Shown: positions 3,270 to 33,106 of the stretch, in pieces
How positions within the stretch are numbered: the stretch's first letter is position 1
Layout: each line of letters begins with the position of its first letter
Assembly: GCA_030635415.1 (NCBI GenBank)
Contig: DAOVYW010000002.1
Span: forward strand, 1-33,106
Direction: 5' to 3'
DNA: 33,106 nt
Source of the DNA: Candidatus Firestoneibacteriota bacterium
GTDB lineage: Bacteria; Oederibacteriota; JAAXVQ01; JAUVAV01
Notes under the pieces: model-generated
Told to the model about the DNA's origin: nothing
The model's database searches: none
Seen by the model: only the letters and a program-made list of their open reading frames with translations
Position numbers and translations under genes: made by a program

Positions 3270-3362
3270 AGAAGGAAGTTAAAAAATAACCAGGCAAATA
3301 AAAAAAGACAGGTTTAGCGCAATAGGCAAAATAATCCTTTTAACAGTTTCGGGTGTGTTTTT

Positions 3363-6176: not shown

Positions 6177-6275
6177 TCCGCTTTAAATAAAATGCCTTGA
6201 TTTTAAGAATTTCTTACCTCCTTCTACCCTAATCTGAAAGAAAGGCATCTATTTCATTAAATGGAGGTTTATATT

Positions 6276-7355: not shown

Positions 7356-7395
7356 TTCCGGATTAGACAATTATCAGCGAGGTTAGTCTTTTCAA

Positions 7396-15552: not shown

Positions 15553-15858
15553 ATGTCTAAACGGTTTTTTTGGCTGATAATTGTTCTGGTGGTTTTGGCC
15601 GGCGGGATAGTTGGTGGATTTTGGCTGGGGAAGAAAATATCCGGTAACCGGACAGCGGCCTTTAAGGCCGGTCCGGGCGGGAAAGAGGCTTTGACGGAAA
15701 AAGAGGCCGGGTATTTAAACCGGGCGTATGGCACGCCTCCCGGGAAAGAGCCAGCCGTGATTCCGGGTTCCCCGGGAAGCAGGACAGGGGCGGAGGTTTT
15801 AAAAACGCTGCGGGAAGTGCAGGAAATAAATCGGATGAATACTCAAAATGAGAAATAA
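15553..15858 (+). CDS. small single-pass membrane protein, first gene of the efflux operon
   Basis: 101 aa with AAGGAG 8 nt upstream of the ATG. It has an N-terminal TM (FFWLIIVLVVLAGGIVGGFWLG) and a Gly/Pro/Lys-rich tail. No family recognised. Confidence 0.55.
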   Translation: MSKRFFWLIIVLVVLAGGIVGGFWLGKKISGNRTAAFKAGPGGKEALTEKEAGYLNRAYGTPPGKEPAVIPGSPGSRTGAEVLKTLREVQEINRMNTQNEK

Positions 15859-15868
15859 TGGAGGAAAA

Positions 15869-17323
15869 ATGAAGCCTAAGCCAGGATCAGGAAGAACCGG
15901 TGGTATAGGGGTGATCTGCTTGATATCCTTGCAATTACTGGCTGGTTATTCCGCCGGGGCAGAGAGCCGGAGCGGGAACCCAGCGGATGATAAACCGGCT
16001 ATCAGCCGGCAGGAAAGCCTCGCGATTAGCGAAAAGAATTATGCGCCTCTGCGCCTGGCCCGGGAAGAGATCGAGGTTATGCATGCCAAAGCGGCCGAAG
16101 CGGCCCGTAATCTCTGGCCGAATTTTTCGGCCAAGGGCGAGTATACCAAGGGCGCGGAAATCGAGGAACTGGGCACGCCGGGATTTGAAGAGAAAAGCTA
16201 TGGGCTCCAACTAAGCCATACCCTATTTAAAGGCGGGGGCATATGGGCCGCGTACCAACAAGCGGACGCCAATCTGCTAATCTCCCGTTTTAAATATCAA
16301 AAAGTCCGGCAGGATATGATTTACCGGGTTACTGAGGCTTATTGGAATCTGGCCCGCACCCAGGCTGATCTGTCCGACTGTCAACGCGGACGTGAGGCGC
16401 TCAAACAATATGACCGTATGGCTAAAAAACTATACCGGAATGGAGTGATAGATAAGCGGCAATTGCTGGCAACCGAATCGCAGTTAAATCAATCCGAGTA
16501 TCAATATGAAAGCGCCAGGATTGAGTGCGAGAAATTTCTCTGGGAATGGACTGCGGCTCTGGGACTTGACAATCCGCCGGATAGGCGTCCCCCTCAGAGT
16601 GTTCCCTTTCAGAAATTGGAGATCAAGCTGAACGAGTGCCTGCCAACCGCCCTCGCCGGACATCCGGAAATACTTATGCAGGAAGCGGCGCTCCAGGCAA
16701 GCGGGTATGAACTGAAGGTAAGAAACAGCGCGGATTGGCCCAAACTGGAACTGAACGGATTTTACGGGCGGAGCGGCGGAGCTTACCAGAGTGAGACTCT
16801 GGAGTTGAATGAAGATTATAATATTACGGTTAAATTAACCCAAACCCTGGCCTGGAATACCCTGGAAATTTCGGGGTTTGATCAAAAAACCAGTCCTAAG
16901 CTGGGACAGTCCACCCGCACCGAAGCCCGCACGGCTACGGCAGCTCTGGGTTTTATGGACGGATACAAGGCGGCGGCGGAAAAACGGGAAGCCGGGTTGA
17001 ATCGCCGGGAAGCGGAATTTAAGCTCAAGCAGGCGCAGGAAAGCGTGGCTGCCGGGGTACGGGAAGCGTTTTATAATTACCGTAAAGCGTTAATCCAGAT
17101 CAAAAACGCCGAGCTTGACCTGGACTTGAGCCGGAAGGGACTGGCTATTAATAAAATCAATCTCAGGGATAGCCGAGCAACTATTGACGATGTGGCAAAA
17201 AGCAGAAACGAACTTGCTAATGCCGGGATTGCATTACGGGAAGCAAAAGTGTTTTACCTGATCTCCCGGGCGGCCTTGGACCGGGCTATTGGTAAACCGG
17301 GAAAGTATGAGGTTGGGGAGTAA
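15869..17323 (+). CDS. TolC-family outer membrane efflux protein
   Basis: The ORF opens at 15848. The ATG at 15869 follows GGAGG (15860-15864) and gives a signal-peptide-like N-terminus (MKPKPGSGRTGGIGVICLISLQLLAGYSAGA). Two-fold coiled-coil/beta-barrel repeat pattern typical of the OEP family (YQQADANLLISRFKYQKVRQDMIYRVTEAYWNL...; ...AGVREAFYNYRKALIQIKNAE). Confidence 0.85.
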   Translation: MKPKPGSGRTGGIGVICLISLQLLAGYSAGAESRSGNPADDKPAISRQESLAISEKNYAPLRLAREEIEVMHAKAAEAARNLWPNFSAKGEYTKGAEIEELGTPGFEEKSYGLQLSHTLFKGGGIWAAYQQADANLLISRFKYQKVRQDMIYRVTEAYWNLARTQADLSDCQRGREALKQYDRMAKKLYRNGVIDKRQLLATESQLNQSEYQYESARIECEKFLWEWTAALGLDNPPDRRPPQSVPFQKLEIKLNECLPTALAGHPEILMQEAALQASGYELKVRNSADWPKLELNGFYGRSGGAYQSETLELNEDYNITVKLTQTLAWNTLEISGFDQKTSPKLGQSTRTEARTATAALGFMDGYKAAAEKREAGLNRREAEFKLKQAQESVAAGVREAFYNYRKALIQIKNAELDLDLSRKGLAINKINLRDSRATIDDVAKSRNELANAGIALREAKVFYLISRAALDRAIGKPGKYEVGE

Positions 17324-17355
17324 TCATTTATAATACCAATTTTCAAAAAAGGCAG

Positions 17356-18450
17356 GTGCGTATGAAAAAGCAAAAAAACCAAAAATCCTGGTTGCGGGAG
17401 AATCGTTATTATTTAATCGGCGCTTTATTTATATTATTTCTGGGAGCATTAGCTTTAGTCTGGCGCGGTTATCACGGCCCTTCCGCGGGAGAACGGCCCG
17501 GAGTTTCACCCGCTTTGGGATCCGGAGGCAAGCAGGCCCGCTATGTTCAGGTGTTCCGTGCGCAGCAGGTGCGTTTTCAGGACGCGCTGGAGAGCCTGAC
17601 GGGTACGGTTAGAGGTTCTTCACTGGAATTAAAATGCACGCAGGAGGAGAAGCTGCTCAAGTATAATTACCAGCCCGGTGACTTTGTTAAAAAAGGCGGG
17701 ATTATCGCGGAGTTGGACCATGTCCGCACCCGGGCGCGTTATCGCCAGGCCCAGATAAATCTGAAACGCAAACAATCACTCTACGACGTGGGCGGCGCGG
17801 CGCGCATGGAATTGGAGGAAGCGGAGGAAACCCTGAATATTGCGGAAAAGGATTATCAGGATACTTTTATCCGGGCGCCCAAGAACGGATACATGGGAGA
17901 ATGCCGGGTGCAGGAAGGCGAACTGACTGCGCGGCAGGCGCCAATAGTCTTTTTTGTAAGTACGGATGATCCGTTTTTCGTGGAGACCAATATTATCGAG
18001 AAAAGAATGCCGGAAATTAAAGTGGGGCAGAAGGCAATGGTAATAATCGAGGCTTTCCCGGGAGTGGAAATCCCGTGCAAAGTATTGAGTATTTCTCCCG
18101 AAGTAACCACCACCAGCCGGATGGCGTCCGTGCGGATTGGGATAGCCCGGGAATATCGCGCCCGGATCAAACCGGGGCTTTCCACGGTCTGCCGGATAAT
18201 TATTTTTGATCGCGAGGTGCTGCTGATACCAAAAAACGCCCTGCTGGAGAAGGAAGAGTCAGTATACCTGGTTGACGAAAAAAATCGGGTGCATGTCTGC
18301 CCGGTCGAGACGGGGTATGCTTCGCGCGATTACGTGGAAATCCGGCAGGGACTTAACGAGGGTGATGTGGTCGTGCTGCGTCCGGAGGCCGTCAATCTTA
18401 AAAAGGGCTTGGAAATAAGCTATGGCCAGGTCGAAGAGTACGGAAAATGA
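17356..18450 (+). CDS. efflux RND periplasmic adaptor (MFP/HlyD family)
   Basis: 364 aa with an N-terminal TM, a lipoyl-like GDFVKKGGIIAELD motif, a coiled-coil hairpin (RARYRQAQINLKRKQSLYD...EEAEETLNIAEKDY), then IRAPKNGYMG. GTG start at 17356 (alternative ATG at 17362). The stop overlaps the next start (ATGA at 18447-18450). Confidence 0.85.
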   Translation: MRMKKQKNQKSWLRENRYYLIGALFILFLGALALVWRGYHGPSAGERPGVSPALGSGGKQARYVQVFRAQQVRFQDALESLTGTVRGSSLELKCTQEEKLLKYNYQPGDFVKKGGIIAELDHVRTRARYRQAQINLKRKQSLYDVGGAARMELEEAEETLNIAEKDYQDTFIRAPKNGYMGECRVQEGELTARQAPIVFFVSTDDPFFVETNIIEKRMPEIKVGQKAMVIIEAFPGVEIPCKVLSISPEVTTTSRMASVRIGIAREYRARIKPGLSTVCRIIIFDREVLLIPKNALLEKEESVYLVDEKNRVHVCPVETGYASRDYVEIRQGLNEGDVVVLRPEAVNLKKGLEISYGQVEEYGK

Positions 18451-21400
18451 AATTCATCCAGTTTTCAGTTTCGCGCCGGGTAACCATCAGCATGCTATAT
18501 GCGCTCGTCTTTCTGCTCGGTTTTCTGGCCTGGCAGAGGCTTCCCCGGGAATTTATGCCCAGCCTGGAGTTTCCCCAGTTGGTAGTACTAACGGTTTATG
18601 AAAACGCTTCCAGCCGGGAAGTGGAGACACTGATAACCAAAGTAATAGAGGAGGCCTGCGGTACGGTTAAAGGCGTCCGCCGGATTCATTCCCTATCCAA
18701 AGAGGGCATCTCTCTGGTGACCGTGGAATTTCAATGGGGCGTGGACATGGATTTTGCCTCCTTGAATCTGCGCGAAAAAATCGATTTAACCAAAGTCAAG
18801 CTGCCGCGTGAGGCCGGGGAGCCGCGAATTGAGAAATATAATCCCTTTGCCCTGCCGGTCATGGTGTTGAGCCTGAGCGGAAAGCGGACGGCTCAGGAAT
18901 TACTGAAAATAGCCAAACGGCCGGTGGCGGAATTAATGGAAAAAGTGCCGGGAGTAGCGGCGGTCTCGCTTACCGGGGGGCTGGAACGCGAGATAATTAT
19001 TGAGCTCGACCAGGCAAAGCTGGCTAATTACCAGGTTTCCATCCTTCAGGCCGGCGAGGCCGTATCCCGGGGAAATGTTACCTACCCGGCCGGAACCGTG
19101 AAGGATGAAACCTATGAATATGTTGTCCGGGTAATGGGAGCGTACGCGGCGCCGGAGGAGATCAATCAGGTAGTAGTAAAAGTGGACCGGGACAAGCTCT
19201 TTCCCAGCGATATGTTTTCCCGCGGCCGCGCCGGGCAGAGGCGGTCCCCGGAGAAATCATACCGCGAAAAACAGACTGCCGCGCCCCTGGTACTGCTCTC
19301 ATCCCTGGGAATAGTGCGGGATACTTTTAAGGAACGCGCCAGTTACGCGCGCTATGACGGGCAGGAAAACATCTCACTGGCTATATTAAAGCAGGGTGAT
19401 GCGCACGTTACTGAAGTAGCGGCGGCCGCGAGAAAAAAATTGGATAATATCAAGAGCAAACTGCCTCATGGCCTGGAATTGAAAATAATCTATGACCAGT
19501 CGCTGTTTATCAAAGCCGGTATCCGGCAGATGGTAAATGCCGGCTTGATGGGAGCATGCCTGGCTTTTTTAGTATTGTTCCTTTTCTTCAGAGACTGCCG
19601 GAACGCGTTGATTGTAAGCGCCGCCATTCCGAGCTCAATCCTGGCGGCCTTGTTTCTGATGCATCTAAAAGGGATTACTCTCAATACTGTATCCCTGGCC
19701 GGACTGGCCGTGGGAATCGGTCTGCTGGTGGACGGTGCGATTGTGGTGGTGGAGAACATTACCCGGCATAAGGAGGCGGGGAAAGCTTCATCGCTCGCGG
19801 CCTTGACAGGAGCCAGGGAGATGCTTGGTCCGGTAACCAGTTCGGTGGGCACCACGATAGTGGTTTTTCTGCCTCTGATATTCGTTCTGGGAATCATTGG
19901 GCAGGTGTTTCGGGATCTCTCCTGGGCAGTGGTTTTCTCCCAGATGGCTTCCCTGGTAGTGGCTTTTACTCTGGTGCCAATGCTGGCCGGCATGATATTC
20001 CGGCCCGGTGCGCTTCATCCACCCCGTTTTCTGGATTTTCTATACCAAGCGGCCGGACGCTTACGGGACAGGTACGAACATATCCTGAAATGGTGTCTGG
20101 ATCATGCGGGGCGCACGTTAATCTTCGCGGCCATTATCTGGATAGGCAGCCTGGGCCTGACCGGATTGCTTCCCCGCTCACTCTTTCCCAGTCTGGACCA
20201 GGATCAATTTATCCTTCATTTGAAAATGCCGCTAAGCACGCGCCTGGAAATCACCAATAATACGGCAAAAAAACTGGAAGCGCTGCTCACGAAAATACCG
20301 GAAGTCAAGCATTGCATGGTTACCGTAGGATCCCTTCCCCAGCAGGGCCTGCAGCCCCTGGGTGGACATGAGGCTCAACTGGTTATCGATTTGGCAGGCT
20401 CACGGCAGCGGAGCGCGGCGGAAATTATCCAGGAAATAAAAGGCGGAATTGAAGGTCTGGCCCTGGCCGGTGGAAGGGTGGTTTTTCAGCAGCCCGGCGG
20501 AACCTTCAGCGAACTGGCAGGAAAAGGCGCGCCGATTATAGTGGAGATAAAGGGATATGAGCTTAAAAACCTGCGCCGGGTTTCCCGGCAATTACAAGAC
20601 AGGCTTAAAGGGATTTCTGAAATCTATAATGTGAATACCTCTTTAGATTTAACTACGCCGGAAATAGAAATCAAGGTTAACCGGGACCAGGCCGCGGTCT
20701 ACAGCCTCTCGGTCGCGGATATGGCCAAAACCTTGCTTACTGCCGTACGTGGGCGGGTGGTATCCAAGTATAGGGAAGAAGGACGGGAGATTGATATCCG
20801 GGTCCGGCTGGCGGAGCAGGACCGCATGGACCTGAAAGCCCTGCGCAGGTTACTCATCCGGTCACCCCTGGAAATAGACGTTCCCCTGGAAGCTGTGGCC
20901 GCCATTAAGCACGGCACCGGACCAAGCGAGATTCTCCATTATGACCAGCAGAGAACCGTTCTGGTAACTGCGGGTTTATACGGCAAGCCGTTGGACAAAC
21001 TTCGCCCTGAAATAGAGGATATACTGGAGGAGTTGCGGGAACAAAACCCGGATCTGGGACTGACGCTGACTGGAGAGGCCGCGAGAATCGAGGAGTCCTT
21101 TGCCAGCTTGAAGATTATTCTTATAATTTCCCTGCTGCTGGTATACATGATTATGGCTGCCCAATTCGAATCCTTTGGCCAGCCCTTTCTGATTATTCTG
21201 ACCATACCCCTGGCGCTTATCGGCATGGGACCGGCCTTGCTGCTTGCCGGTCATTCGCTTTCCGCTATGGCAGGCATGGGCTTGGTTCTGCTGTGTGGCA
21301 TAATAGTCAACAACGGGATTGTGCTGCTCGATTATATCAATCAGCGCCGCCAAAAGGATTCCAGTTCCCTTAAAACCGTTCTGCAGGAAGCCTGCCGCGT

Positions 21401-21620
21401 GCGTTTAAGACCCATTGTCATGACCGCAGCCACCACTATCCTGGGTCTGCTGCCCCTGGCCCTGGGGCTAAGCCGTGAGACGCAGATGCAAGCGCCCCTG
21501 GCCATAGTAGTGGTATCCGGACTTTTTGTTTCCACCTGTCTGACCCTGGTCATACTGCCGTCTATGTATTTGCTGTTTGAGAATCTGAAGGAAAAAATAT
21601 TAACCAAGCGTTTATCATGA
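18447..21620 (+). CDS. RND efflux permease (AcrB/HAE-type), canonical length
   Basis: 1057 aa with FSVSRRVTISMLYALVFLLG at the N-terminus. Conserved TM4 and TM10 blocks: LAGLAVGIGLLVDGAIVVVENI and GLVLLCGIIVNNGIVLLDYI. ATGA overlaps occur at both ends. Confidence 0.93.
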   Translation: MKFIQFSVSRRVTISMLYALVFLLGFLAWQRLPREFMPSLEFPQLVVLTVYENASSREVETLITKVIEEACGTVKGVRRIHSLSKEGISLVTVEFQWGVDMDFASLNLREKIDLTKVKLPREAGEPRIEKYNPFALPVMVLSLSGKRTAQELLKIAKRPVAELMEKVPGVAAVSLTGGLEREIIIELDQAKLANYQVSILQAGEAVSRGNVTYPAGTVKDETYEYVVRVMGAYAAPEEINQVVVKVDRDKLFPSDMFSRGRAGQRRSPEKSYREKQTAAPLVLLSSLGIVRDTFKERASYARYDGQENISLAILKQGDAHVTEVAAAARKKLDNIKSKLPHGLELKIIYDQSLFIKAGIRQMVNAGLMGACLAFLVLFLFFRDCRNALIVSAAIPSSILAALFLMHLKGITLNTVSLAGLAVGIGLLVDGAIVVVENITRHKEAGKASSLAALTGAREMLGPVTSSVGTTIVVFLPLIFVLGIIGQVFRDLSWAVVFSQMASLVVAFTLVPMLAGMIFRPGALHPPRFLDFLYQAAGRLRDRYEHILKWCLDHAGRTLIFAAIIWIGSLGLTGLLPRSLFPSLDQDQFILHLKMPLSTRLEITNNTAKKLEALLTKIPEVKHCMVTVGSLPQQGLQPLGGHEAQLVIDLAGSRQRSAAEIIQEIKGGIEGLALAGGRVVFQQPGGTFSELAGKGAPIIVEIKGYELKNLRRVSRQLQDRLKGISEIYNVNTSLDLTTPEIEIKVNRDQAAVYSLSVADMAKTLLTAVRGRVVSKYREEGREIDIRVRLAEQDRMDLKALRRLLIRSPLEIDVPLEAVAAIKHGTGPSEILHYDQQRTVLVTAGLYGKPLDKLRPEIEDILEELREQNPDLGLTLTGEAARIEESFASLKIILIISLLLVYMIMAAQFESFGQPFLIILTIPLALIGMGPALLLAGHSLSAMAGMGLVLLCGIIVNNGIVLLDYINQRRQKDSSSLKTVLQEACRVRLRPIVMTAATTILGLLPLALGLSRETQMQAPLAIVVVSGLFVSTCLTLVILPSMYLLFENLKEKILTKRLS

Positions 21621-24600
21621 ATTTTACCCAGCTTTTACACCTATCCGTATTCGGACTGATTTTGATAATGGCAGCCAAACATCTGCCCGGATTCACCATC
21701 CGCCGGCCCGTGGCTTTTATAATGATTCTGGGCGTGGTCGCTTTGGCCGGAGTCACAGGGATCAAGCAATTGCCGATTGAACTCATGCCGGATATCGCCT
21801 ATGGCAATGTAACGATTTTTGTGGAAGTCCGGGGCGGCATGCCGCCGCCCGAGGTGGAACGCCTGGTTACCAAACCGATTGAAGCTGTCATGGGAACAGT
21901 CTCCAAATTAAAAAATATCATCTCTTCCTCCAAGAAACACAAGGCGGTTATTACCCTGGAATTTGAGCCCGGGACAAATATGGATCTGGCTGCCCTGGAA
22001 GTGCGCGAGAAATTTCTGCGGGTTAAAGCCAAACTGCCCCGGGAAATCGAGCGGCCCATAATCGCGCATTATGAGGAATCCGACGCGCCGGTAGTAATAG
22101 CTGCGCTGACCTCCTCCCGGCATACTCCGGAAGAAATGCGACGGATGGTGGAGGGAGAACTCAAGGAAAAATTGCTCCGCTTGCCCGGGACGGCCAATAT
22201 TGAGATCGGCGGAGGACGGGAGCGGAAAATTTTGGCTGAACTGGATAAACACCGGCTGGCGGCGCTGGGAATTCCCATTAAAAAAATCACGGCCATTCTG
22301 GAACAAAATAATCTCAACCTGCACGCCGGGAACCTGGAAGGCAGGACCTATAACCTGGGACTCCGCACTTTGGGAGCTTTTCAGTCCCTGGAAGAGATCA
22401 GCAACATCGGGATCGCGGTGGGCAAAAAAGGCGGGATCATCCGGCTCAAGGATGTTGCCCGGGTTAAGGACGATTACCTGGAACCGGAAACCCATTCACG
22501 CCTTAATTCCCGGGCCGCAGTTACCATCTATGTCCAGAAAGAGAGCCTGGCCAATACCATACGCGTGGTTTCCGGAGTACGGCGTGTGCTGCGGGAATTT
22601 GAGTCCCGCATGGAGACCGGGATGGATTTAATCATAGTGACCGACCAGGCCCGGACCATCCAACAAGCCGTGCGCTCCGTAAAGATGACTCTCTTTTATG
22701 GCGCGTGTCTGGTAATCATTATACTCGGGCTTTTCTTGAGCCAAACCGTTTTCACCCGGTGGCTGGCCGGCGGTCTGCTGATCCTGCTTTTGCTCAACCT
22801 GCTTACCCTCTACTTCCTGCGCATTCCTTTGGAATCCAGCCTGGGAATGGTTATCGGAGTACTGGGACTGCTTTTCTGTCTCTCATTATGGCGCGGAGAT
22901 CTGCGTCCTGCCATGATAGTAGGCTGCTCAGTTCCCGTATCTCTCCTGATTACTCTGGCATTAATGTATTTTGAAAATGTATCCCTGAATGTCATCTCGC
23001 TCGCCGGTCTGGTTCTGGGAATCGGCCTGCTGGTGGATAATTCCATCGTAGTCCTGGAAAATATTGATCGCTGGAAACGTAAACTTCCGGATAGGGACGG
23101 CCCGCAACGCGTGGAAATCGCGGCCCAAGAAATGGTGCCGGCTATGGTGGGAGGAACCCTGACCACAGTGGTGGTTTTTCTGCCGTTTGCCTTGTTGCAG
23201 AAACAGACCCAGTTGCTATACGCGGGTATTGCCTTTACGGTAACCGCGACCTTGTTTTCATCCCTGTTTTGCGCTCTGGCTCTGGTTCCGGCCCTGGGAG
23301 CGCGTCTGCAGCCGGTGGATAACAGGCGCAAGCGGACAAAGCCTACCCGGCCTTGGACATTCCCATGGAGGGGGCGTCCGGATTACGGAATAAAAAAACT
23401 GCTCAGACGCCCGGTGAAAATCCTGCGTACTCTGGCAGAGTATATTCTGCGCCGTATCATTTCAATAGGATGGCCGATCGGGCTGCTAATCACGGTTTTG
23501 TTTGCCCTCTTGCTTTATTTCAAGTTTAAACTGGAATGGCCGGTAATAATATTTCTGTCAGCCTGCGGCACGGTTATTATTCCCGGAATTTTTATGTTTC
23601 GGCATTACTCGGCCAATTTGCGGAAAGTCCTGCAACATAAAGGCAAAACACTAATAGCCATATCCATTCTGTTCTGTATCGCGGTTTTTGTATTCATACA
23701 GTACGTACCCAAGGACTTCATGGCAGCTTCCGAGCAGAGCGAGTTCGTGGTTTACGTGGAAATGGCTTCCGGGACGCGTCTGGACATCTGCGACCGGATA
23801 GTGAGGGAAGTGGAAAAACGTATCTCCGGGCTCCCGGAGATCAGGGATATGATAAAAAGTCTTTCCTCGCGAGTGGAAGGATGGTCATCCAAAATATACG
23901 TATCTTTAAAACCCCGGGCTGAGCGCCGGTTTTCCACCCAGGAAGTCATAGATAATCTCCGGGAGCGTTTTAAGGGAGTAGGGGAAGATCATGATACCTT
24001 TGTTTATTTTTCCGAACCCCGGAGCGGCAAGGAAATATTCATCGAGATTTACGGTTATAATTATGAAACCCTGGCCCAATTAGCCATGCGGATTGCGTCC
24101 GGCATAGGAAAAATTCCGAAATTTACGGATGTGAAAATCCGCTACCGTCCCGGACGGCCCGAGGTACGGGTAATGCTCGATACCCGACGGACCGCTATGC
24201 TGGGATTCAATCACCGGGAAATAGGGGAGGTTATGCACGCCCAGCTGCGGGGGTTACGCGCCACCTCTTTTTATCATCAGGAAGAAGAAATTGAGACCAT
24301 AGTGCGGCTTAAGCCCGAACAGTGCCGTACCATCGGGCAGCTTAAAAATCTGGGTCTGGTCTCCCCGGCCGGATTCAGCGTGCCCGTAGAACACATATCC
24401 CGGCTGGAGTTCGGTCTCTCGCCCAGTGAAATATGGCACCGGAACAAGACCCGCATGATCCAGGTCAGCGCCAATCTCGGCCTGCTGCCTCTGGGTCTGG
24501 CAGCCAAACGCGTCCAGGCGGTAATCGCCCAAGTGGATTTTCCCGAGGATTACTACGCCGATATCGGAGGAGACTATGAGAGTATGGTCCAGGCAAACCG

Positions 24601-25129
24601 GAGTTTTTGGCAGGCCATGGTAATGACAATTCTTTTAGTCTTTGTGGTAATGGCCTGCCTCTTTGAATCACTGCGCCAGCCCTTGATTATAATGATAACC
24701 GTGCTGCTGGCCGGCATTGGTGCCGTAGCCGGTCTGGTACTCACAGCCAGCGCGGCTACGCTGGGAGTATCAATCGGACTGCTCATGCTGGGCGGCATAG
24801 TCGTGAACAACGGCATAATTCTGGTAGACCGGATCAATGCCATGCGGAAAAAATCTCCTCATGTCAGGCTGGAGAAAATCGTAATCCGGGCCGGACATCA
24901 GCGCCTCCGCCCCATACTAATGACAACCATTACCACTGTCCTGGGCCTGCTGCCCATGGCTTTAGACAGGAGCGAATCAGCCGTACTCTGGAGCCCGCTC
25001 GCCCTTACCGTCATCGGCGGCCTGATAGCCTCCACTGTTCTCACCCTGTTTGTAATTCCCTGTATTTATATTATTGAGTTCCCCCGTTGGCCTGTCCTGG
25101 ATGGTTTAGTCCAGGGAAAAGGGGGTTAG
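21617..25129 (+). CDS. RND efflux permease paralogue with extra hydrophobic insertions
   Basis: 1170 aa with conserved blocks LAGLVLGIGLLVDNSIVVLENI and GLLMLGGIVVNNGIILVDRI. Compared by eye with the upstream paralogue, it has a 51-aa insertion at 22739-22891 and a ~52-aa insertion at ~23444-23599. Confidence 0.9.
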   Translation: MNFTQLLHLSVFGLILIMAAKHLPGFTIRRPVAFIMILGVVALAGVTGIKQLPIELMPDIAYGNVTIFVEVRGGMPPPEVERLVTKPIEAVMGTVSKLKNIISSSKKHKAVITLEFEPGTNMDLAALEVREKFLRVKAKLPREIERPIIAHYEESDAPVVIAALTSSRHTPEEMRRMVEGELKEKLLRLPGTANIEIGGGRERKILAELDKHRLAALGIPIKKITAILEQNNLNLHAGNLEGRTYNLGLRTLGAFQSLEEISNIGIAVGKKGGIIRLKDVARVKDDYLEPETHSRLNSRAAVTIYVQKESLANTIRVVSGVRRVLREFESRMETGMDLIIVTDQARTIQQAVRSVKMTLFYGACLVIIILGLFLSQTVFTRWLAGGLLILLLLNLLTLYFLRIPLESSLGMVIGVLGLLFCLSLWRGDLRPAMIVGCSVPVSLLITLALMYFENVSLNVISLAGLVLGIGLLVDNSIVVLENIDRWKRKLPDRDGPQRVEIAAQEMVPAMVGGTLTTVVVFLPFALLQKQTQLLYAGIAFTVTATLFSSLFCALALVPALGARLQPVDNRRKRTKPTRPWTFPWRGRPDYGIKKLLRRPVKILRTLAEYILRRIISIGWPIGLLITVLFALLLYFKFKLEWPVIIFLSACGTVIIPGIFMFRHYSANLRKVLQHKGKTLIAISILFCIAVFVFIQYVPKDFMAASEQSEFVVYVEMASGTRLDICDRIVREVEKRISGLPEIRDMIKSLSSRVEGWSSKIYVSLKPRAERRFSTQEVIDNLRERFKGVGEDHDTFVYFSEPRSGKEIFIEIYGYNYETLAQLAMRIASGIGKIPKFTDVKIRYRPGRPEVRVMLDTRRTAMLGFNHREIGEVMHAQLRGLRATSFYHQEEEIETIVRLKPEQCRTIGQLKNLGLVSPAGFSVPVEHISRLEFGLSPSEIWHRNKTRMIQVSANLGLLPLGLAAKRVQAVIAQVDFPEDYYADIGGDYESMVQANRSFWQAMVMTILLVFVVMACLFESLRQPLIIMITVLLAGIGAVAGLVLTASAATLGVSIGLLMLGGIVVNNGIILVDRINAMRKKSPHVRLEKIVIRAGHQRLRPILMTTITTVLGLLPMALDRSESAVLWSPLALTVIGGLIASTVLTLFVIPCIYIIEFPRWPVLDGLVQGKGG

Positions 25130-25423
25130 GGGACAACTTTCTTATTTACAGAAAGTGAATGAAGGGCTGGCAGTGTGAAATATGTTAAAAATATTGTAAA
25201 TAAAAGAAATACCTTAATTTTTAAGAAGTTTTAAAATGTGCGCAAAATCGACATATTATTGGGATATAGATTTGCTATATGCTCAAAGCCCTGGAACAAA
25301 CTGCGAATTGGACAGCAGGGAAGATCAAGGCTATCAGTGAGAGAGACTAAAATTATTGGCGATATTTTTGAAATGGTGGGTGGGTTTTATGATCTCCTGG
25401 CAGAGATCAATTAAAAGGGACGC

Positions 25424-26434
25424 ATGGGAGCCGCGATGACCCTGCTGGTATTGATCATTCTGGTTTTAGTCTTAGCTGCTTTTTCGATGAAACTTTCAAA
25501 AAGGATTAAAGTTCCTTCTGTGGTCGCACTTATTGTTGTGGGACTAGTTTTGGGCCAACCTCCATTTAAGAGTTTCTTTATCGGCGAATATGATCAAGTC
25601 GTTTTTCTGCTGGGAGACATAGGCCTGTTGGCTTTAATGTTTTTAGCTGGTTTTGAGAGCTCTTGGCAACGGCTCTATCAAGAAAAAAAGGATGCAGCTT
25701 TAATCGCAGTGTTTGGTGTGTTTTTTCCTTTGATTCTGGGGACATTGGTTATACTCCTTTCCGGATATCCTCTCTCTATAGCCATAGTTGTCGGTGTTTG
25801 CTTAAGTATTAGCGCAGAAGCGACCCGGGCCAAGGTTTTGCTGGAACTTAAACAAATTAACACCCGGCTGGGCGCTGTCCTAATGGGTTCAGGCTTAATC
25901 GATGATATGCTTGGCTTATCCTTATTTGTCCTGATTACATTTTTAATTAAAGGAACGGCTACCAAAGAACAGTTTTTAGTGATAGGGTCGATTATCACTT
26001 TTTTCTTAGGATTATGGTTAAAACAATATATTAGCCGGCACCAAGTCTTAACCCTCATGCTTGAGAAAGGATTAAACACATTAATTATCCCCTTTTTCTT
26101 TGTTGCTATTGGCATTCATTTCAATTTTAATACCCTAATAGTGCATCCTTATCTGCTTATAACGATTTTCCTAGTAGGGGTTATCAGTAAATGATGAGGC
26201 GCTTTCGCTGTAAAACCATGGACTAACCTTAGTTGGCAGCAACTCAATTTGGCAGGTTGGGCAATGAATTCCCGTGGGGCCTTGGAACTTGCTTTGGCTT
26301 TGGTAGCCTTTCGCAGTAACTTAATTACTGAATCTCTTTATTCCAGTCTGATTGTTATGGCCCTAATTACCACCTTAATGTTTCCGTTCATTATCATCCA
26401 AATGCTTAAACGGCACCCTGATATTATGAATTGA
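25424..26434 (+). pseudogene. CPA2-type cation/proton antiporter gene interrupted by tandem in-frame TGA TGA
   Basis: ORFs 25424-26194 and 26249-26434 are in the same frame. The sequence reads ...LVGVISK * * GAFAVKPWTNLSWQQLNLAGWAMNSRGALELALA... Na+/H+-exchanger-family features are present on both sides of the stops (LAGFESS, LIDDMLG upstream; NSRGALELALA downstream). Confidence 0.75.
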
Positions 26435-26761
26435 TTGAGATTTCATTTTTCATCCTGGCCGGAGAAGACGGTGAACTGTGGACTAGGAGCCTCTTATCCG
26501 ATTAACCGAAGAACGTCCCCTGAAATCAATACAATTGCACAAGTTTTGTGCTATGCTCCAAAAAATATGTTCAATATCATAAGTTTGAAAAAGTGAAAAT
26601 AGTTGAAAAGAAAAAGAGATTCCGTCTGTCTAAACAATCGTACTCCAAAAAACCTTACCATATCTATTACTTTACAATAACGGGAAGTAGAGACTTATTG
26701 TTATTGCCCCCAATTAGTGTAAGGGACGGTCGAGACTGTTCCCTAAACCAGGAGGAACACC

Positions 26762-29700
26762 ATGCGCTTGAGACTGACATATCCGGGAAAAATAAGACTG
26801 CGCAAAGGCGTTACACTTTTTGTTGCGATAGTATTCGCCTATTTCAGTACTCTGGCAACCGGCATGGAGGCTTTTGCCGCGTACTTGGGAGCGGCTAAAA
26901 GCGGCAAGATAGAGAGCTTTCAGGACCGGAGAAGGTCAGGATACTTCAGTCCTGAAGTAATAGACAGCAGGATTAAGCAACAACAGGCTGTGGTGGACTA
27001 CCAGAACTGGAAAGAGCGCTCCCTGGAAAAGCAGCGCGCAAAAGTTCTGGGAAAAATTGCCCAAAACGTGGATGAGGCGGTATTTTCGCAAAAGCAGAGT
27101 ACCCACCGGATGGAGCTGGAGGTCCAGGCCGCCCAACAGAAGGTATTCGCCATTCTGGGACAGGCCGCCTTGTTTAATTATGTCCAGTACAATGACGGCA
27201 AGCGTATCTGGTTTAAAGACGGTCTGGCAGTAATCATTGAGAATGAGCGCATCCTGGATGCGCAAGGTAATGTTTCCCTCCGCAATACATATAATATGGA
27301 ATATAACCCTAAACGCTTACTGACCAGCTATGAGTCTGACACCACGGACTGTCTGGGCAATCTGACCCATGTTAAATGGTACGGCGCGAAATATACCCGG
27401 GATTCGGTTTTTTACGCGGATGACGAGACCTATGCCAATAAACTGATCACGGATTATATCCAGGAGACCACGGATTATTTCGGCAATGCCACAAAAGTAG
27501 AGTGGAGCAAAGCCCAATACGACGGCAAGCTGCTGACAAGTTATCATGAGGAATTTACGGATGCTCGCGGCCATGTCAGCGTTAAGGACTGGTATAGCGC
27601 CAGATATGACGAGAACGAGCAACTGGTGGAGTTCCAGGAGGATCTGCTTTCCGTCAAGGGTGTTCGCACACACCGTCTCTGGACTGGTGGAACATATATC
27701 AAGAACCCAGGGTATGACAAAGCCATGAACAACCGGGGACAGGCACAGACCGCGCCGGAATATTTGCTGGTGGCTTATCATGAGGAGATCACGGACGAGT
27801 GGGGTAACAAGACCATGCGGGACTGGCAGGGCGCGGAGTATGATCAATACGGCCAATTGGTCCGGTATGAGGAAATCCGGACTGATGCCCTGGACCGGCA
27901 AAAGAGTATTTTCTGGACCAAGGGAAAATATGATGAATACGGCCGGCTGATCGGGTATCAGGAAGACGTGGTTAATATTGACGAGACCACGAGCCGGGTG
28001 GAATGGGTGGCTGAGGTTTACGACCAGCAGCACCGTCTGCTGGCTTTCCTGGAAACCCGTACCGATGCCCTGGGCAATAAAAGCCGGCTCTGCCGCTATA
28101 ATATCCAATACAACTGCCTGGGAGATATACTGGCCTATAAGGAGTTTATTACTGATATCCACGGCCATGTTTCCAGCATCTCCTGGGAGAGCTGGCAGTA
28201 TGATGAATATGGCCGGCTTTTGGCCTTTCAGGAAAAAGTGGTTGATAACTTTGGCAACCGTACTTCCTGGATATGGGAGAACGCGGTGTTTGATTGCCAT
28301 GACCGGCTGCTCTCTTTCAGCGAGACCAGCGTGGATGTTCTGGGAAATCTCAGTGAGCGCGAGTGGCTGGAGGCCGAATATGACCAGTATGGGAGATTGA
28401 TAAAATACCGCGAGATCACCATGGACATACTGGGCAATCGCTCTCACCGGGAATGGAGCGGGGCGATATATGACGAATTCGACCGGCTGGCCGCGTATAT
28501 TGAAATCAATACCGACTCTCTGGGCAATCAGATGCAGGGGAAATGGAGCGCGGGCATAGGGGCGCAGGACATACATGCTTACAATGATTTTGGTCAACTG
28601 ACAGGCTATACGGAAGAGATCACTGATATCTACGGCCAGACCTCCATCAGGTACTGGAGGGGCGGAAAGTACGATAAGTATGGCAATCTTCTGGAATATC
28701 ATGAAAGCCTGATTAATCCCGACGGCTCAAAATCAAGCCGGACCTGGACCGGGGGCAAGTATGATGATTACAACCGGCTGATAAGTTATATGGACATATG
28801 GGACTACCCTGGTGGGGAGCAGTCCATTCATTACTGGTACAACGCCGTATATGATACGTTCGACCGCCTGATAGAGTTTCAGGAGCGTTTTTCCGACAGC
28901 GCGGGAAATTCGGCGCATAATCACAGGTTCAATACGAATTATAATACCCTGCACCAAGTGCTCTCGTACCAGGAGAGCGTCACTGACAGTCAGGGCGTAA
29001 TAACCAACGTCGCATGGTCAGAGGGAGCTTATGATGAATACGGGCGTTTGCGCGGATACCTCCAGACCAGTGTAAACCAGGCTAATCCGGATGTAATTAT
29101 AACCACCCGGGTCAGGGACCGGGCCTATGACAGATATGGTGAGCTTGCGGGCGGCGAGCAGACAACTACCACCAAGGGCATCACGGCTGCTGGAAGCCTG
29201 GTAAACGCCATAACTACCGTCCGTATCCAGAACGCCGTATTCTCATCCTCAAACCTTCTGATATCCTACACCCAGACCACCCAAACCATTGGCCTGGATC
29301 CCTCAGGCATCCTGCTGGACTGGCAGGAAACCCTGATTGTAACCGATATCACGCCCTTTTCCCGGCGCGAGATCCGGCATACCCGGGCCGAGGGCCTGGA
29401 TCACACAGTTATAACCGTTCGTACCGATATCACCCGCAACCGCCAGAGACAGATTACCGGTTATCAGGACGAGATATTCGATGAAGCCACACCAGCCGGG
29501 GTTACCATGATCCAGCGATCCAACACTTGTTATAACAGCCGGGGCGAGATAATCTCCTATCGGGAAATTATCCAAGACCTCCTGGGCCTGGTCAGCTCGC
29601 GTTTAGTGAGTGGTTTGCTCTACAACGGGCTCTCCCAAATGATCTCTTCGCATACGCGGACCGAGCGCACCAGCCAGGGCAGCAAGGCCTTGCCGGAAAA

Positions 29701-32700
29701 CTGGGCCGAACTTAACCAGGATGAGCAACGTGCTGTAATGACAAAGATTTTCGCCAATATCGGAAACAACGTAAACTGGGAGAGTGTATCGCCGGACCAG
29801 CAGACCGCTTTGCTCTCCGGCAAAACGGTTCTGCTGGAAGACGACGCATGCTTTATACTTGATCCTGACACCCTTAGCCTGGCTATGACCATGACGCTGC
29901 ATGAAGACACTCAGCGGTCCGATATCGGTTATGATGTTCTCGGACGCATGCGATCTTATGAGCAGATCAGCCGGACGCAGGGTAGCGAGTATAAAACCAT
30001 TACCCAATGGGAAGCCCAATCCTTCAACCCGGCCGGCCTGACAGCATCGGAGATTATTACTACTTTATTGATTGAAGAGACGGAACAAGTGGATGCGAAA
30101 AACCTGGAGGAGTATCAGGTTCCGGATCATAGTCAGGGTTTTCTTACGCGCCGGGAGCGCACGCTTATAACCTACAACCTCTTTGGACAGTTATCCGGCT
30201 ATCAGGAGCAGAGCGCGGATTCCCGGACTCCGGATTTGGCGACACATAAAACTGTGGGCAGCATAACCTATGACTCTCTGGGACGCGTGGCAGAACAGGA
30301 GGAAAACACGCGCCAGACAGGCCAAACCACGCAGGAACTATCTGACCTGGAATATCTGAATACTTATATGCTGGCCGGCGTAACTTTACTATGTTTCGAT
30401 CAGGAAGTTGTTTGGGATGAGATAAGCAGGGCCGACCAGGCCGCTCTGCTCACCGGGCAGAGCATAACCCAGGCCAGGCCGGCCGGAGATTTCCAGCTCA
30501 GCCTGGACGCGGACAGCGCTACGGTTATCCTGACCAGGATAGACCGGACCATCCATACTAGGCGTTCCCACGCCCAATTCGACAGCCAGGGACGTTTGAC
30601 AGGATACACGGAAAGAGTGACCACCACCGGACGCGAGAGCCAGGGCCAAGAGTTTGTAATGATCGAGACAAATCTGCGATCGGGCATGGAGTATGACGAG
30701 AATGGCCGCATACGCACGTATCAGGAAGTGCGATACTCAAACCAGAGCCCGGACCTGCGATTGAACATAACCCGAAGCAATATCACGTATGATCCCAGGG
30801 GACAGCTCTCGGGATTTGAGGAGAAGATAATCAAGCGTGCTGAAATCAACGGTAAATTGGTCCTGTATATTGAAAGCAGAACGCGGCGCTCCAATATAAT
30901 CTACAACGGGGCCGGTCTGACAGCCGGTTACCATGAAAGCCTGGAACGTTCCGACCGGGCCGGGTTGATAATGCAAATAGACCGGATTGACATGCAGTAT
31001 GCGGCTGGCGGCCGGCTCCTGGGATACATTGAAATTGTGCAGGACAACCAGGGGTACAGTACGCGCACTGAGGTGGCAAATATACAGACCAACAGCCTGG
31101 GCCAGGAGACCGGGCGTGGGGAAAGAGTGATTACCAGTGCTTTGAGTGAATCGGGCCGGGAAATTCTGCGTCAGGAGCAGACCTCGCTTTTCCGGAACCA
31201 GCGCTACAACAGCCTGGGCCAAAAAACCGCCTATATCGAGACTCGTACTAATAAAGAAGATGACAAAACTATTACCATACTCTGGGGCCAAGGCAGGTAC
31301 AACTCCCTGGGCCAGTTGGAATCATATTACCGCGAAACTCTGGAAAAAGGCCTGGGTCTGGACAGAAAAGAAGCGCGCGAACGTCTTGCCACAGCTTACA
31401 ACACCCTGGGACAGATAATCAGTACTACGGAGATAATCACCTGCTCGGACGCGCCGGATAAGACAGTCACGGAAAACACTCATAATATTACCTACAATGA
31501 GTGCGGCCGGCAAAATACTTTTGTGAAAGAAATCAATGAACAGGCGCGGGCCTGGGGAGAGATGAGCTTGAACATCTCTGCCACAATCAGGCGGCTCTCC
31601 ACGGATTATAATGATCTCGGCCTGGTCAGCGGTTATGAAGAAGAAACAGCCAGTTACGGCCAGGACGGAACTGAGATCCTGGATCTGAGAGCAAATACCG
31701 GACGCGACAGCATGATCTACTCCCAAGGCCGCCAACTGATTAGTTATCATGAAGTTACCTCCAGCAGTGACAAACCGGACCTGAACCTGGATATACAATG
31801 GAAGGGCAAGTACGATCCGCAAGGCCTGCTTACGGGTTTTGAAAGAATAGAGAATAACGGCCTGCTGATCAGCATGCTAAAGCGCGAAAACATAGAGTAT
31901 AACACTCTGGGCCAGGTCAGAGGATATGCCAGTACTGTTATTAATCGATCAACCGCCCTGTCCGGAATGCCGCCTGCGCTTCCGGTGAATACTACTACTC
32001 TGCAAAGCCGCGGCAGCATTGAGTATGATAAGCAAGGCCGCGTGCTTGCTTATATAGATGAAACGCGCGCTGCTGCCCGGCCGGAGATACTGACCAGGAC
32101 TTTGCGGACCCAAAACAAGTATGATGGCTGCGGCCGGCTGGAAGCCTGGGAGGATGAAGTTTTGAGTTTAAGCTCACTCCCTGGAGAGCAGGAAAAACTT
32201 TTATACCGGACAATACATACGCGCAAAACCACACGTTTTAACGCGCTCTCCCTGGAGTCGGAATATAAAGAAGAGATCGAGCATCAGGGACGCGATATCC
32301 GGGAGAGTGTGAGCCGGAAAAACATCCGGCATGACCTTAGCGGACGAACGCTAAGCTATTTGGAAACCCGGCGCGAGACAGATATTAAGGAAAATGATCT
32401 GGACCGGACAACCACTATAAACCGCGAGTATACAGGTTATGACCGCCGCGGCCGCGTGGAAGCGTATTCCGAGACCCGGACCTCATCAGCTGCCAACGAT
32501 ATTATCGAGAACATTAAATGGAGAGCGGAGGAATTCGATTCGGCCGGGAGAGTCAAGGCCAGTACGCAGACTACCAGGCCGTTTTCCCTCCAGGAGGGGA
32601 TCCCTCTGGGCGCGGGCCGGCCTAATGAGCGGAAGGACATACTATACGATGCCCAAAACCGCGAAATCGCGTACGAGAAATTCACACATACCCAGGGGAA

Positions 32701-32935
32701 CACCACGCATGTTCAACGCAGCAACATCGCGTATAACGGCCAAGGATTGCGGACCGGGTATCACGATCTAACCAAGCAGTACGATGAGAACCAAACCCTG
32801 GATGTTATCACGGAAACCACGCGCTCGCGCATACAGTATAACAACCTGGGCCGGGAGACGTATTATGAAGACCTAATAAAATCCAGCCAGGCTGTGGACG
32901 TTAACACCACGGTTATTTGGTCCCGGGGCGAGTAG
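26762..32935 (+). CDS. giant secreted YD/Rhs-like repeat protein (first 2,057 codons, up to an in-frame TAG)
   Basis: AGGAGG at 26750-26755 lies 6 nt before the ATG. Sec-type signal: MRLRLTYPGKIRLRKG plus a hydrophobic core and AFA. The rest is dominated by YD-x2-G-R-L-x2-Y-x-E ... D-x2-G-N ... W repeats. Confidence 0.85.
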   Translation: MRLRLTYPGKIRLRKGVTLFVAIVFAYFSTLATGMEAFAAYLGAAKSGKIESFQDRRRSGYFSPEVIDSRIKQQQAVVDYQNWKERSLEKQRAKVLGKIAQNVDEAVFSQKQSTHRMELEVQAAQQKVFAILGQAALFNYVQYNDGKRIWFKDGLAVIIENERILDAQGNVSLRNTYNMEYNPKRLLTSYESDTTDCLGNLTHVKWYGAKYTRDSVFYADDETYANKLITDYIQETTDYFGNATKVEWSKAQYDGKLLTSYHEEFTDARGHVSVKDWYSARYDENEQLVEFQEDLLSVKGVRTHRLWTGGTYIKNPGYDKAMNNRGQAQTAPEYLLVAYHEEITDEWGNKTMRDWQGAEYDQYGQLVRYEEIRTDALDRQKSIFWTKGKYDEYGRLIGYQEDVVNIDETTSRVEWVAEVYDQQHRLLAFLETRTDALGNKSRLCRYNIQYNCLGDILAYKEFITDIHGHVSSISWESWQYDEYGRLLAFQEKVVDNFGNRTSWIWENAVFDCHDRLLSFSETSVDVLGNLSEREWLEAEYDQYGRLIKYREITMDILGNRSHREWSGAIYDEFDRLAAYIEINTDSLGNQMQGKWSAGIGAQDIHAYNDFGQLTGYTEEITDIYGQTSIRYWRGGKYDKYGNLLEYHESLINPDGSKSSRTWTGGKYDDYNRLISYMDIWDYPGGEQSIHYWYNAVYDTFDRLIEFQERFSDSAGNSAHNHRFNTNYNTLHQVLSYQESVTDSQGVITNVAWSEGAYDEYGRLRGYLQTSVNQANPDVIITTRVRDRAYDRYGELAGGEQTTTTKGITAAGSLVNAITTVRIQNAVFSSSNLLISYTQTTQTIGLDPSGILLDWQETLIVTDITPFSRREIRHTRAEGLDHTVITVRTDITRNRQRQITGYQDEIFDEATPAGVTMIQRSNTCYNSRGEIISYREIIQDLLGLVSSRLVSGLLYNGLSQMISSHTRTERTSQGSKALPENWAELNQDEQRAVMTKIFANIGNNVNWESVSPDQQTALLSGKTVLLEDDACFILDPDTLSLAMTMTLHEDTQRSDIGYDVLGRMRSYEQISRTQGSEYKTITQWEAQSFNPAGLTASEIITTLLIEETEQVDAKNLEEYQVPDHSQGFLTRRERTLITYNLFGQLSGYQEQSADSRTPDLATHKTVGSITYDSLGRVAEQEENTRQTGQTTQELSDLEYLNTYMLAGVTLLCFDQEVVWDEISRADQAALLTGQSITQARPAGDFQLSLDADSATVILTRIDRTIHTRRSHAQFDSQGRLTGYTERVTTTGRESQGQEFVMIETNLRSGMEYDENGRIRTYQEVRYSNQSPDLRLNITRSNITYDPRGQLSGFEEKIIKRAEINGKLVLYIESRTRRSNIIYNGAGLTAGYHESLERSDRAGLIMQIDRIDMQYAAGGRLLGYIEIVQDNQGYSTRTEVANIQTNSLGQETGRGERVITSALSESGREILRQEQTSLFRNQRYNSLGQKTAYIETRTNKEDDKTITILWGQGRYNSLGQLESYYRETLEKGLGLDRKEARERLATAYNTLGQIISTTEIITCSDAPDKTVTENTHNITYNECGRQNTFVKEINEQARAWGEMSLNISATIRRLSTDYNDLGLVSGYEEETASYGQDGTEILDLRANTGRDSMIYSQGRQLISYHEVTSSSDKPDLNLDIQWKGKYDPQGLLTGFERIENNGLLISMLKRENIEYNTLGQVRGYASTVINRSTALSGMPPALPVNTTTLQSRGSIEYDKQGRVLAYIDETRAAARPEILTRTLRTQNKYDGCGRLEAWEDEVLSLSSLPGEQEKLLYRTIHTRKTTRFNALSLESEYKEEIEHQGRDIRESVSRKNIRHDLSGRTLSYLETRRETDIKENDLDRTTTINREYTGYDRRGRVEAYSETRTSSAANDIIENIKWRAEEFDSAGRVKASTQTTRPFSLQEGIPLGAGRPNERKDILYDAQNREIAYEKFTHTQGNTTHVQRSNIAYNGQGLRTGYHDLTKQYDENQTLDVITETTRSRIQYNNLGRETYYEDLIKSSQAVDVNTTVIWSRGE
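27302..29160 (+). repeat. array of about 19-20 tandem 90-nt (30-codon) protein-level repeats inside the giant gene
   Basis: Units counted by eye include YDQYGQLVRYEEIRTDALDRQKSIFWTKGK, YDEYGRLIGYQEDVVNIDETTSRVEWVAEV, YDEYGRLLAFQEKVVDNFGNRTSWIWENAV and YDQYGRLIKYREITMDILGNRSHREWSGAI. The units have diverged at the DNA level, and a few are longer. Confidence 0.85.
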
Positions 32936-33106
32936 GACCGTTTCGGCCGTCTGTTCGGCTATTCACAAAATACCAGCCAAAACGGCGAGAACAGCCAGGC
33001 ACAAAAATTTGAGCTTGAGCTTACTACTGACCGAAAATACACGACATACGATATCCAAGGCCGGCTCACTGGCTGGCAGGAGAACAGGACCTCTTCGGCC
33101 GAACCC
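32936..33106 (+). CDS. in-frame continuation of the giant repeat protein beyond the TAG (partial, runs off the window)
   Basis: 57 further sense codons lie in the same frame, with no ATG, GTG or TTG among them. They read DRFGRLFGYSQNTS...KYTTYDIQGRLTGWQENRTSSAEP, which keeps the repeat register. Confidence 0.7.

Follow-up and report, generated by a model that had tools for sequence, protein, structure and literature searches.

The YD/Rhs hairpin is known from closed toxin cocoons in bacteria and from teneurins in animals. RHS protein features have also been seen by the authors describing giant proteins of Omnitrophota, which are predicted to form hollow 'tubules' of ~1,500 amino acids (aa), i.e. 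single-stranded antiparallel beta-sheet helices that bear alpha-helices at regular intervals on the outside (West-Roberts et al., 2023, bioRxiv 10.1101/2023.11.21.568195). In that preprint, Omnitrophota giants of more than 30,000 aa carry many transmembrane regions, divergent SecA-DEAD, dockerin/carbohydrate-binding module (CBM) segments and type II secretion-like loci, proteins of 10,000 aa or more are noted in Elusimicrobiota, the term 'YD repeat' does not appear and the section on tubules describes no 30-aa repeat (bioRxiv 10.1101/2023.11.21.568195). Elusimicrobiota are also reported to be enriched in unannotated proteins above 5,000 aa (PMC11573180). Here, we describe a giant gene at the 3' end of contig DAOVYW010000002.1 (positions 1 to 33,106, hereafter the window, i.e. 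the whole stretch analysed) from a Candidatus Firestoneibacteriota bacterium (assembly GCA_030635415.1). The gene is real and under selection; its host is an uncultivated diderm bacterium, and no more than the 5' third of it lies in the window. The product combines a Sec-type signal with a very regular 30-residue YD-like repeat, and is very probably a distinct, giant, Rhs-like hairpin-ribbon protein and not a canonical Rhs toxin.

The repeat array and its relation to Rhs shells

The window appears to be a complete contig, as the cluster entry of the protein lists 33,106 nucleotides for its longest contig. The open reading frame (ORF) spans 26762-32935 on the forward strand and runs from an ATG start over 2,057 codons to one TAG, past which 57 further in-frame codons lead to the window end. 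Its features are given below together with their basis; P0002 is the protein of a close relative, encoded on the independent contig L002.

26750-26755, forward strand: ribosome-binding site AGGAGG, 6 nucleotides (nt) 5' of the ATG (sequence itself)
26762-26878, forward strand: Sec-type signal peptide, aa 1-39 (hydropathy scan; AxA pattern also in relatives P0004 and P0005)
26879-27178, forward strand: Gln/Lys/Glu-rich linker, aa 40-139, presumed helical (translation and family alignment)
27179-29119, forward strand: array of ~21 predicted beta-hairpins, aa 140-786 (unit hidden Markov model (HMM), AlphaFold2, Foldseek)
27839-29029, forward strand: strictly 30-aa periodic block within the array, aa 360-756 (unit HMM)
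29120-32932, forward strand: irregular hairpin-ribbon continuation, aa 787-2057 (AlphaFold2 of aa 781-1480; strands of 10-20 aa)
29717-29815, forward strand: predicted alpha-helical insert 1, aa 986-1018 (AlphaFold2 helices H206-220 and H231-238 of model 2; motif at aa 1006)
30362-30451, forward strand: predicted alpha-helical insert 2, aa 1201-1230 (AlphaFold2 helices H421-424 and H443-450 of model 2; motif at aa 1218)
32933-32935, forward strand: in-frame TAG at the Tyr codon of a YD anchor (TAC in L002; the P0002 protein reads GE[Y]DRFGRL)
32936-33106, forward strand: the frame runs on for 57 codons to the contig end (collinear with aa 2057-2113 of P0002)

The unit HMM recognizes 20 units in succession between aa ~151 and 786; those of aa 360-786 are spaced exactly 30 aa apart except for one 37-aa step, and the family-wide unit consensus is YDQLGRLTSYQETVTDSLGNVTHREW. 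Downstream of the array, YD/YN..G(R/Q)L anchors recur irregularly to the window end, at distances of 30-45 aa or more within aa 787-2057. At the N-terminus, a basic n-region is followed by a ~20-aa hydrophobic core (aa 16-37) and by A-F-A↓A at aa 37-40, a pattern that makes a cleavable Sec signal likely. A preliminary description, made from the letters of the window, had listed the strong ribosome-binding site, the Sec-type signal, the single TAG with the frame continuing to the window edge, some 19-20 back-to-back 30-aa units and the looser anchors beyond them, all of which were recovered here. The N-terminal module of the array (aa 140-290, profile positions 1-150) is common to ~600-aa relatives; many such signal-peptide proteins (P0065, P0070, P0079 and others) contain this module only and then diverge into sequence without Pfam match.

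The fold was predicted with AlphaFold2 for aa 140-800 and aa 781-1480 from an alignment of only 7 sequences. The first model (predicted local distance difference test (pLDDT) 92.7, predicted template modelling (pTM) score 0.81) is an all-beta chain with one hairpin per 30-aa unit, each comprising two strands, of 11 and 9 residues, and a 5-residue turn after either of them (D..GN after the first, YD..GRL after the second), in agreement with the earlier proposal that both halves of the hairpin are lengthened. In the second model (pLDDT 85.4, pTM 0.79) the ribbon goes on; its strands measure 10-20 residues, and it carries two small helical inserts, both of which share the motif W..(L/V)S..(D/E)Q..LL.G. 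When the two models were searched against the PDB with Foldseek, all 22 significant matches of aa 140-800 were Rhs effectors, teneurins or Tc BC components (E 1e-21 to 6e-8, template modelling (TM) scores of 0.15-0.19 despite the significant E-values), as were 11 of the 12 significant matches of aa 781-1480 (E 3e-11 to 3e-5), the twelfth being mosquito SGS1. Over both models, TM-scores ranged from 0.09 to 0.19 with root-mean-square deviations of 20-30 Å against all shells. Because low TM-scores go together with strong E-values, the local architecture is Rhs-like and the global shape is probably unlike the solved cocoons. An antiparallel beta-hairpin ribbon of Rhs/YD type, i.e. the local architecture of the shells, is thus present in the predicted structures.

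At the sequence level, the likeness to Rhs is confined to the turns. Pfam and NCBIfam searches with the window protein returned no match at E<=1, which covers PF05593, TIGR01643, Ig/BIg/cadherin domains and the Rhs core TIGR03696, the last for a protein that stops before the 3' end of its gene. With PF05593 and TIGR01643 at E<=10, P0002 and the downstream ORF of L002 gave only a TIGR01643 trace (E 1.7, 9.3 bits versus a 15.8-bit cut-off), and Pfam/NCBIfam searches were blank for P0009, for three ~600-aa relatives and for the C-termini of P0010, P0011 and P0013. An idealized array of 8 consensus units matches PF05593 in 8 stretches (E 6.8e-15, 55.5 bits; 39 residues aligned to model positions 1-30) and TIGR01643 (E 5.5e-6, 26.7 bits), so that the artificial consensus array alone scores, whereas natural sequences stay below the curated thresholds of both models. 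In E. coli RhsA, the unit HMM recognizes only the YDxxGRL and TDxxG turns; hhalign relates the unit to RhsA units with 92% probability, restricted to the 11-column YDxxGRL anchor, and a global alignment requires a 4-residue gap in the first strand. The YDxxGRL anchor is accompanied not by a period of 20-22 aa but by one of 30 aa, and of 30-45 aa or more later. A stretched YD repeat, as first suggested from the sequence, is the right description, i.e. a remote branch whose two strands have each grown by 4-5 residues.

The family is also isolated in larger databases. A profile search of 1.84 billion representative proteins yielded 275 sequences at E<=1e-3 and left the very large canonical Rhs family undetected, a word-indexed database of 5.8 billion proteins held only 7 matching proteins, none annotated, and among PDB chains searched with the family profile there was none at E<=10. 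Judged by these searches, the family is rare, lineage-restricted and unannotated, with no described entry in Pfam, NCBIfam or the PDB, and the initial impression that the protein belongs to no described family stands.

These data bear on whether the gene encodes a bona fide Rhs/WapA-type polymorphic toxin, in which one or several cocoons would enclose a C-terminal toxin released by autoproteolysis, with an immunity gene beyond the window. The YD..GRL anchor, the PF05593 match of the consensus array and the Foldseek matches, which apart from SGS1 are all Rhs, Tc and teneurin shells, are as such a toxin would have them, and pTM values of 0.79-0.81 suggest a compact, defined shape. However, the natural sequences fail to reach the thresholds of PF05593 and TIGR01643, the period is 30 and not ~21 aa, and TM-scores reach at most 0.19. 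The core motif PxxxxDPxGL, searched as a regular expression, is absent from the window protein, from P0002, P0010, P0011 and P0013 and from the open frames of L006, L010 and L002; in the 248,000 residues searched, which belong to 157 proteins and reading frames and nearly all come from the family, it occurs once, in a chance-like match.

Gene length and integrity of the reading frame

Relatives reveal how far the gene extends beyond the window. P0002 is 84% identical to the window protein and 2,954 aa long, and another ORF with the same repeat type, at least 3,331 aa long, lies 3' of it on L002. The two ORFs share one frame and are separated by a single TAA, the sole stop between them, within a G14/C8/A8 low-complexity stretch (L002 17420-17525). 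This stretch probably represents an inserted hairpin element or an artefact of the assembly or of poly-G. In L001, whose metagenome-assembled genome (MAG) we take to be a long-read assembly, the split is due to a single extra base (+1 nt) in a G run at a different place, and P0004 is continuous across the 'gene 1 / gene 2' junction. The alternative of two distinct genes (2,954 aa and >3,331 aa, as called in L002 and L001) was considered and rejected on the grounds of the P0004 read-through, the long open frames and the single nature of the lesions.

Thirteen loci were found in species-representative genomes, some MAGs harbouring several paralogues; the MAGs are labelled Elusimicrobia, Elusimicrobiota, candidate division FCPU426 and, in one case, 'Planctomycetia'. 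Frames remain open beyond 6,124 (L006), 6,454 (L008) and 6,029 (L010) codons, P0010 (= L008) reaches 7,965 aa and is still partial, P0013 (L018), located directly 3' of another gene of >3,658 aa, is complete at 7,589 aa, and the longest relatives measure 7,400-8,000 aa. Genes of the family thus comprise 6,000-8,000 or more codons, and the window gene is the 5' part of such a gene. The open end noted in the preliminary description, which placed the functional end beyond the window, is hereby substantiated by the P0004 read-through and by frames open over more than 6,000 codons, at a gene size far larger than was visible to its reader. An exact 48-mer scan of Joint Genome Institute (JGI) metagenomes, run to extend the contig, gave no match.

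The distal part of the ORF of relatives contains a long helical segment followed by more YD-like hairpins, and a search with the distal part of L010 retrieved only the Omnitrophica fragment P0153, which shares the distal double-hairpin repeat type. Where the end is known (P0013 and P0011, the latter 5,823 aa), the C-terminus (in P0013 aa ~6690-7589) consists of a Gly-rich, Gly-zipper-like hydrophobic region and then a GHSxG-type domain (motif form GHSxG / GHSQDG), for which neither a Pfam match nor a meaningful PDB sequence match was obtained; the motif is possibly the nucleophile elbow of an alpha/beta-hydrolase. Short GC-rich palindromic elements occur in frame in the giant genes of relatives (P0010 at aa 2423, 2686, 4438 and later; P0002 at aa 2380, 2497 and 2705; P0003; P0005), for example AATGTAGGGCAAGGCTTTAGCCTTGC, translated as NVGQGFSLA, and others translated as PPLxKGGxGG or SPLRGEGRGEG; the window gene has none.

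In a polymorphic toxin, the hydrophobic segment and the possible hydrolase-like module of the relatives with known ends could be the cargo. Against this, the ribbon of 6,000-8,000+ aa compares with ~700-2,100 aa for known shells, the genes 3' of the complete P0013 include no recognizable toxin or immunity gene and have either no Pfam match or Sel1 repeats, and no genes for a type VI secretion system (T6SS), PAAR or VgrG were found nearby. Within the window, Pfam/NCBIfam and motif searches likewise found no Rhs core, toxin domain or immunity gene with the giant gene, as had been reported at first reading; an Rhs-style end with core motif, toxin and immunity gene, as might be expected further downstream, was not found in relatives either. 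Considering both sides, we regard a canonical Rhs/WapA-type toxin as unlikely.

Genes for long repeat proteins are easily misassembled, and this contig breaks off within the giant gene, which could suggest that the array is an artefact, a chimera or a set of collapsed repeats. However, the array contains no tandem repeat at the DNA level, its length matches in an independent assembly (661 versus 661 residues, window versus P0002), it is collinear with the same unit count in 7 independently assembled relatives, and the window is collinear with the independent contig L002 over 6.4 kb at ~87% nt identity. Because the array lacks a DNA-level repeat and is collinear in seven independent assemblies, an assembly artefact is excluded for practical purposes, its residual probability being negligible.

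The in-frame TAG aligns with TAC (Tyr) in the L002 anchor 'GEYDRFGRL' and is located 171 nt from the contig end. Recoding of TAG was considered and rejected because four other window genes end with TAG as their normal stop and because the codon aligns with TAC (Tyr); the sequence points either to a C-to-G nonsense change or to a base-call error. If real, the TAG could mark a decaying pseudogene or a non-functional relic, a notion to which the frameshift of L001 and the junction-region stop of L002 could be added. Yet these three lesions lie at three positions in three assemblies and are each of an error-prone kind (contig end, G run, G14/C8 stretch), three other loci are intact over >6,000 codons, and the ribosome-binding site and signal peptide of the window gene are intact. 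The ratio of non-synonymous to synonymous substitution rates (dN/dS) between window and L002 is 0.24 for the giant gene (2,105 codons), 0.21 for the array and 0.14-0.17 for two genes of the resistance-nodulation-division (RND) family, with aa 1-139 as the most constrained part of the gene (0.13), and invariant Y, D, G and W columns are numerous across relatives that are 36-50% identical. By these sequence measures the giant gene is under purifying selection, and its being a relic is very unlikely.

The neighbourhood of the gene

The GC content of the giant gene (0.52) matches that of the neighbouring recA, phosphoglucomutase (PGM) and RND genes (0.52-0.55), and its place after the RND genes is conserved, both of which agree with the earlier view of a resident gene. 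An order of TolC-like outer-membrane efflux protein (OEP), membrane fusion protein (MFP), two RND transporters and giant gene, all in the same orientation, is found in 7 distinct related loci, namely the window (15848-25129), L001/L009, L002, L003, L004, L010 and L011, although RND identity is only 55-60%. Paralogues in the same MAGs adjoin unrelated genes (pyruvate formate-lyase, histidine kinase, GroEL, RecQ), and no accessory or secretion gene conserved beside the paralogues was found. Relative to L002, which is 87-92% identical, an insertion of ~1.4 kb with low GC (25073-26493) separates the second RND gene from the giant gene in the window. Because the neighbours of the paralogues are unrelated and because of this insertion, we read the RND linkage as conserved synteny and not as functional evidence; a functional link to the RND operon is weakly indicated at best. 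A scan of 25000-27000 for promoters and terminators gave counts not above those of shuffled controls.

The product could alternatively act as a periplasmic or envelope-spanning scaffold, a giant partner or tether working with the TolC-MFP-RND-RND system instead of a surface appendage. The gene order kept in seven loci at such low RND identity would fit this role, as would a Sec signal as the only export signal, no export system crossing the outer membrane having been found. The unrelated neighbours of the paralogues argue otherwise, as does the low-GC insertion, which implies that co-transcription is not required, and RND systems are not known to depend on a giant partner of this kind. A role of this kind seems quite unlikely to us.

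Several other features of the window were recorded. The ORF inside the insertion (25424-26194, GC 0.40) aligns with a Na+/H+ exchanger over the first half of the Pfam model alone (positions 2-186 of 375). Within the second RND gene of the window, ~194 nt at 23402-23595 have no counterpart in L002 (1,170 versus 1,107 aa) and represent an in-frame insertion inside an AcrB-family transporter. The block at 450-5455 is low in GC (0.40-0.44) and contains the gene of a 939-aa protein of beta-helix / Laminin_G_3 / dockerin type, a 208-aa ORF without annotation (4014-4640) and the gene of a member of the Imm11/Imm43 immunity family (4871-5455); the latter two could form a toxin-immunity pair of their own, with no relation to the giant gene. 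The Imm11 gene (4871-5455) was considered as an immunity partner of the giant protein and rejected, being located 21 kb upstream in the low-GC block and beyond housekeeping genes. The gene at 9948-12443 encodes a fusion protein of 831 aa, the N-terminal half of which is GlmU-like (nucleotidyl-transferase / hexapeptide) and is followed by domains I-III of phosphoglucomutase, and a separate complete PGM/PMM gene (12456-13871) directly follows it.

Proposed architecture and comparison with described systems

As a whole, the data are best explained, with moderate confidence, by a giant Rhs-like ribbon that forms an extended tube or fibre. The protein would be exported by the Sec system and would comprise a ~100-aa polar linker followed by one uninterrupted antiparallel hairpin ribbon. 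Outside the cytoplasmic membrane, this ribbon would wind up as an open and extended spiral, a tube or fibre that is probably hollow. An open tube or fibre is the most likely shape because the ribbon is ~10 times as long as a cocoon, superposes poorly on the known shells and has no closing elements. The tube may serve as a structural appendage that contacts other cells or surfaces, and might also keep in place or steer the hydrophobic and hydrolase-like module at its own C-terminus; an open tube or fibre with such a contact function is put forward tentatively. A bolder version, which we find doubtful, would have the single chain of 6,000-8,000+ residues form a continuous open-ended hollow nanotube of several tens of nanometres, acting as a contact-dependent conduit or harpoon for the C-terminal module. 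The Sec-exported tube would then project from FCPU426/Elusimicrobiota-type cells, with the Rhs 'cocoon' opened into a delivery tube.

Several points weigh against an open tube at the cell surface. Its distinction from a cocoon comes from length, low TM-scores and missing closing motifs in predicted models and sequences, and several consecutive cocoons would be compatible with the same data. A route of export across the outer membrane was looked for and none was identified, and the upstream TolC-MFP-RND-RND system is of the efflux type, so that a periplasmic location is possible. The C-terminal modules come from distant paralogues (P0013, ~25% identical, and P0011) without database support and provide a lead only. 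The window gene is seen to the contig end with its 3' end beyond, and the TAG, if real, limits this copy to a product of 2,057 aa.

If an open tube is true, the cocoon fold would be convertible into a filament or conduit. The hairpin known from closed shells here has a very regular 30-residue period, in ribbons that exceed any solved shell about tenfold in length and are devoid of shell-closing elements, and the confidently modelled, compact 660-aa fragment would allow the tube idea to be tested experimentally. The family fits the report of huge unannotated Elusimicrobiota proteins (PMC11573180); it offers a first structural handle on these 'huge proteins' and links them to the Omnitrophota giants proposed for predation or epibiosis.

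Giant adhesins such as SiiE and the LapA/RTX-type proteins are multi-thousand-residue repeat proteins outside the cell, built from Ig-like beads-on-a-string; they carry C-terminal signals and leave the cell by type I secretion. The window protein differs from them by its continuous predicted hairpin ribbon and N-terminal Sec signal, and a contact function is what the two might have in common. The mosquito salivary protein SGS1 (8fjp) and the teneurin-like protein TLP (9ifo), which are weak to strong Foldseek matches, are also very large and contain Rhs/YD shells, but these are closed, with canonical repeats in multi-domain eukaryotic or teneurin-like architectures and without sequence similarity to the window protein.

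The Omnitrophota giants resemble the family in being encoded by giant genes of uncultivated lineages associated with the Planctomycetes-Verrucomicrobia-Chlamydiae (PVC) group, and the Omnitrophica fragment P0153 carries the distal repeat of the window family. Judged by the description of the Omnitrophota tubules, not by their sequences or models, the secondary structure of aa 781-1480 is similar, with long hairpins and two helical inserts in the AlphaFold2 strand and helix assignment alone. In contrast to the Omnitrophota giants, the window protein has a single hydrophobic segment (few in relatives), SecA-DEAD, dockerin/CBM and type II-like loci do not accompany it, and its longest relatives, at 7,400-8,000 aa, stay far below 30,000 aa. 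The RHS-like tubules may be regarded as a partial precedent.

The closest described architectures remain the Rhs/YD shells (PF05593, TIGR01643), i.e. E. coli RhsA, the T6SS Rhs effectors 8qja, 8qjd and 8uxt, the TcB/TcC components of Tc toxins (4igl, 6h6e) and the teneurins (7ban, 6vhh), with all of which the window protein shares the YD..GRL and D..G turns and the antiparallel beta-hairpin ribbon. The repeat unit of these shells is ~21 aa, compared with 30 aa and 9-11-residue strands in the window protein. Unlike Rhs shells, the window family has alpha-helical inserts and neither an Rhs core/aspartyl-protease motif nor a recognized toxin-immunity pair, and export of the window protein starts with a Sec signal, whereas Rhs and Tc proteins use T6SS or Tc delivery. 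The YD/Rhs hairpin superfamily itself is known; what is new is a rare structural offshoot of it with a 30-aa period.

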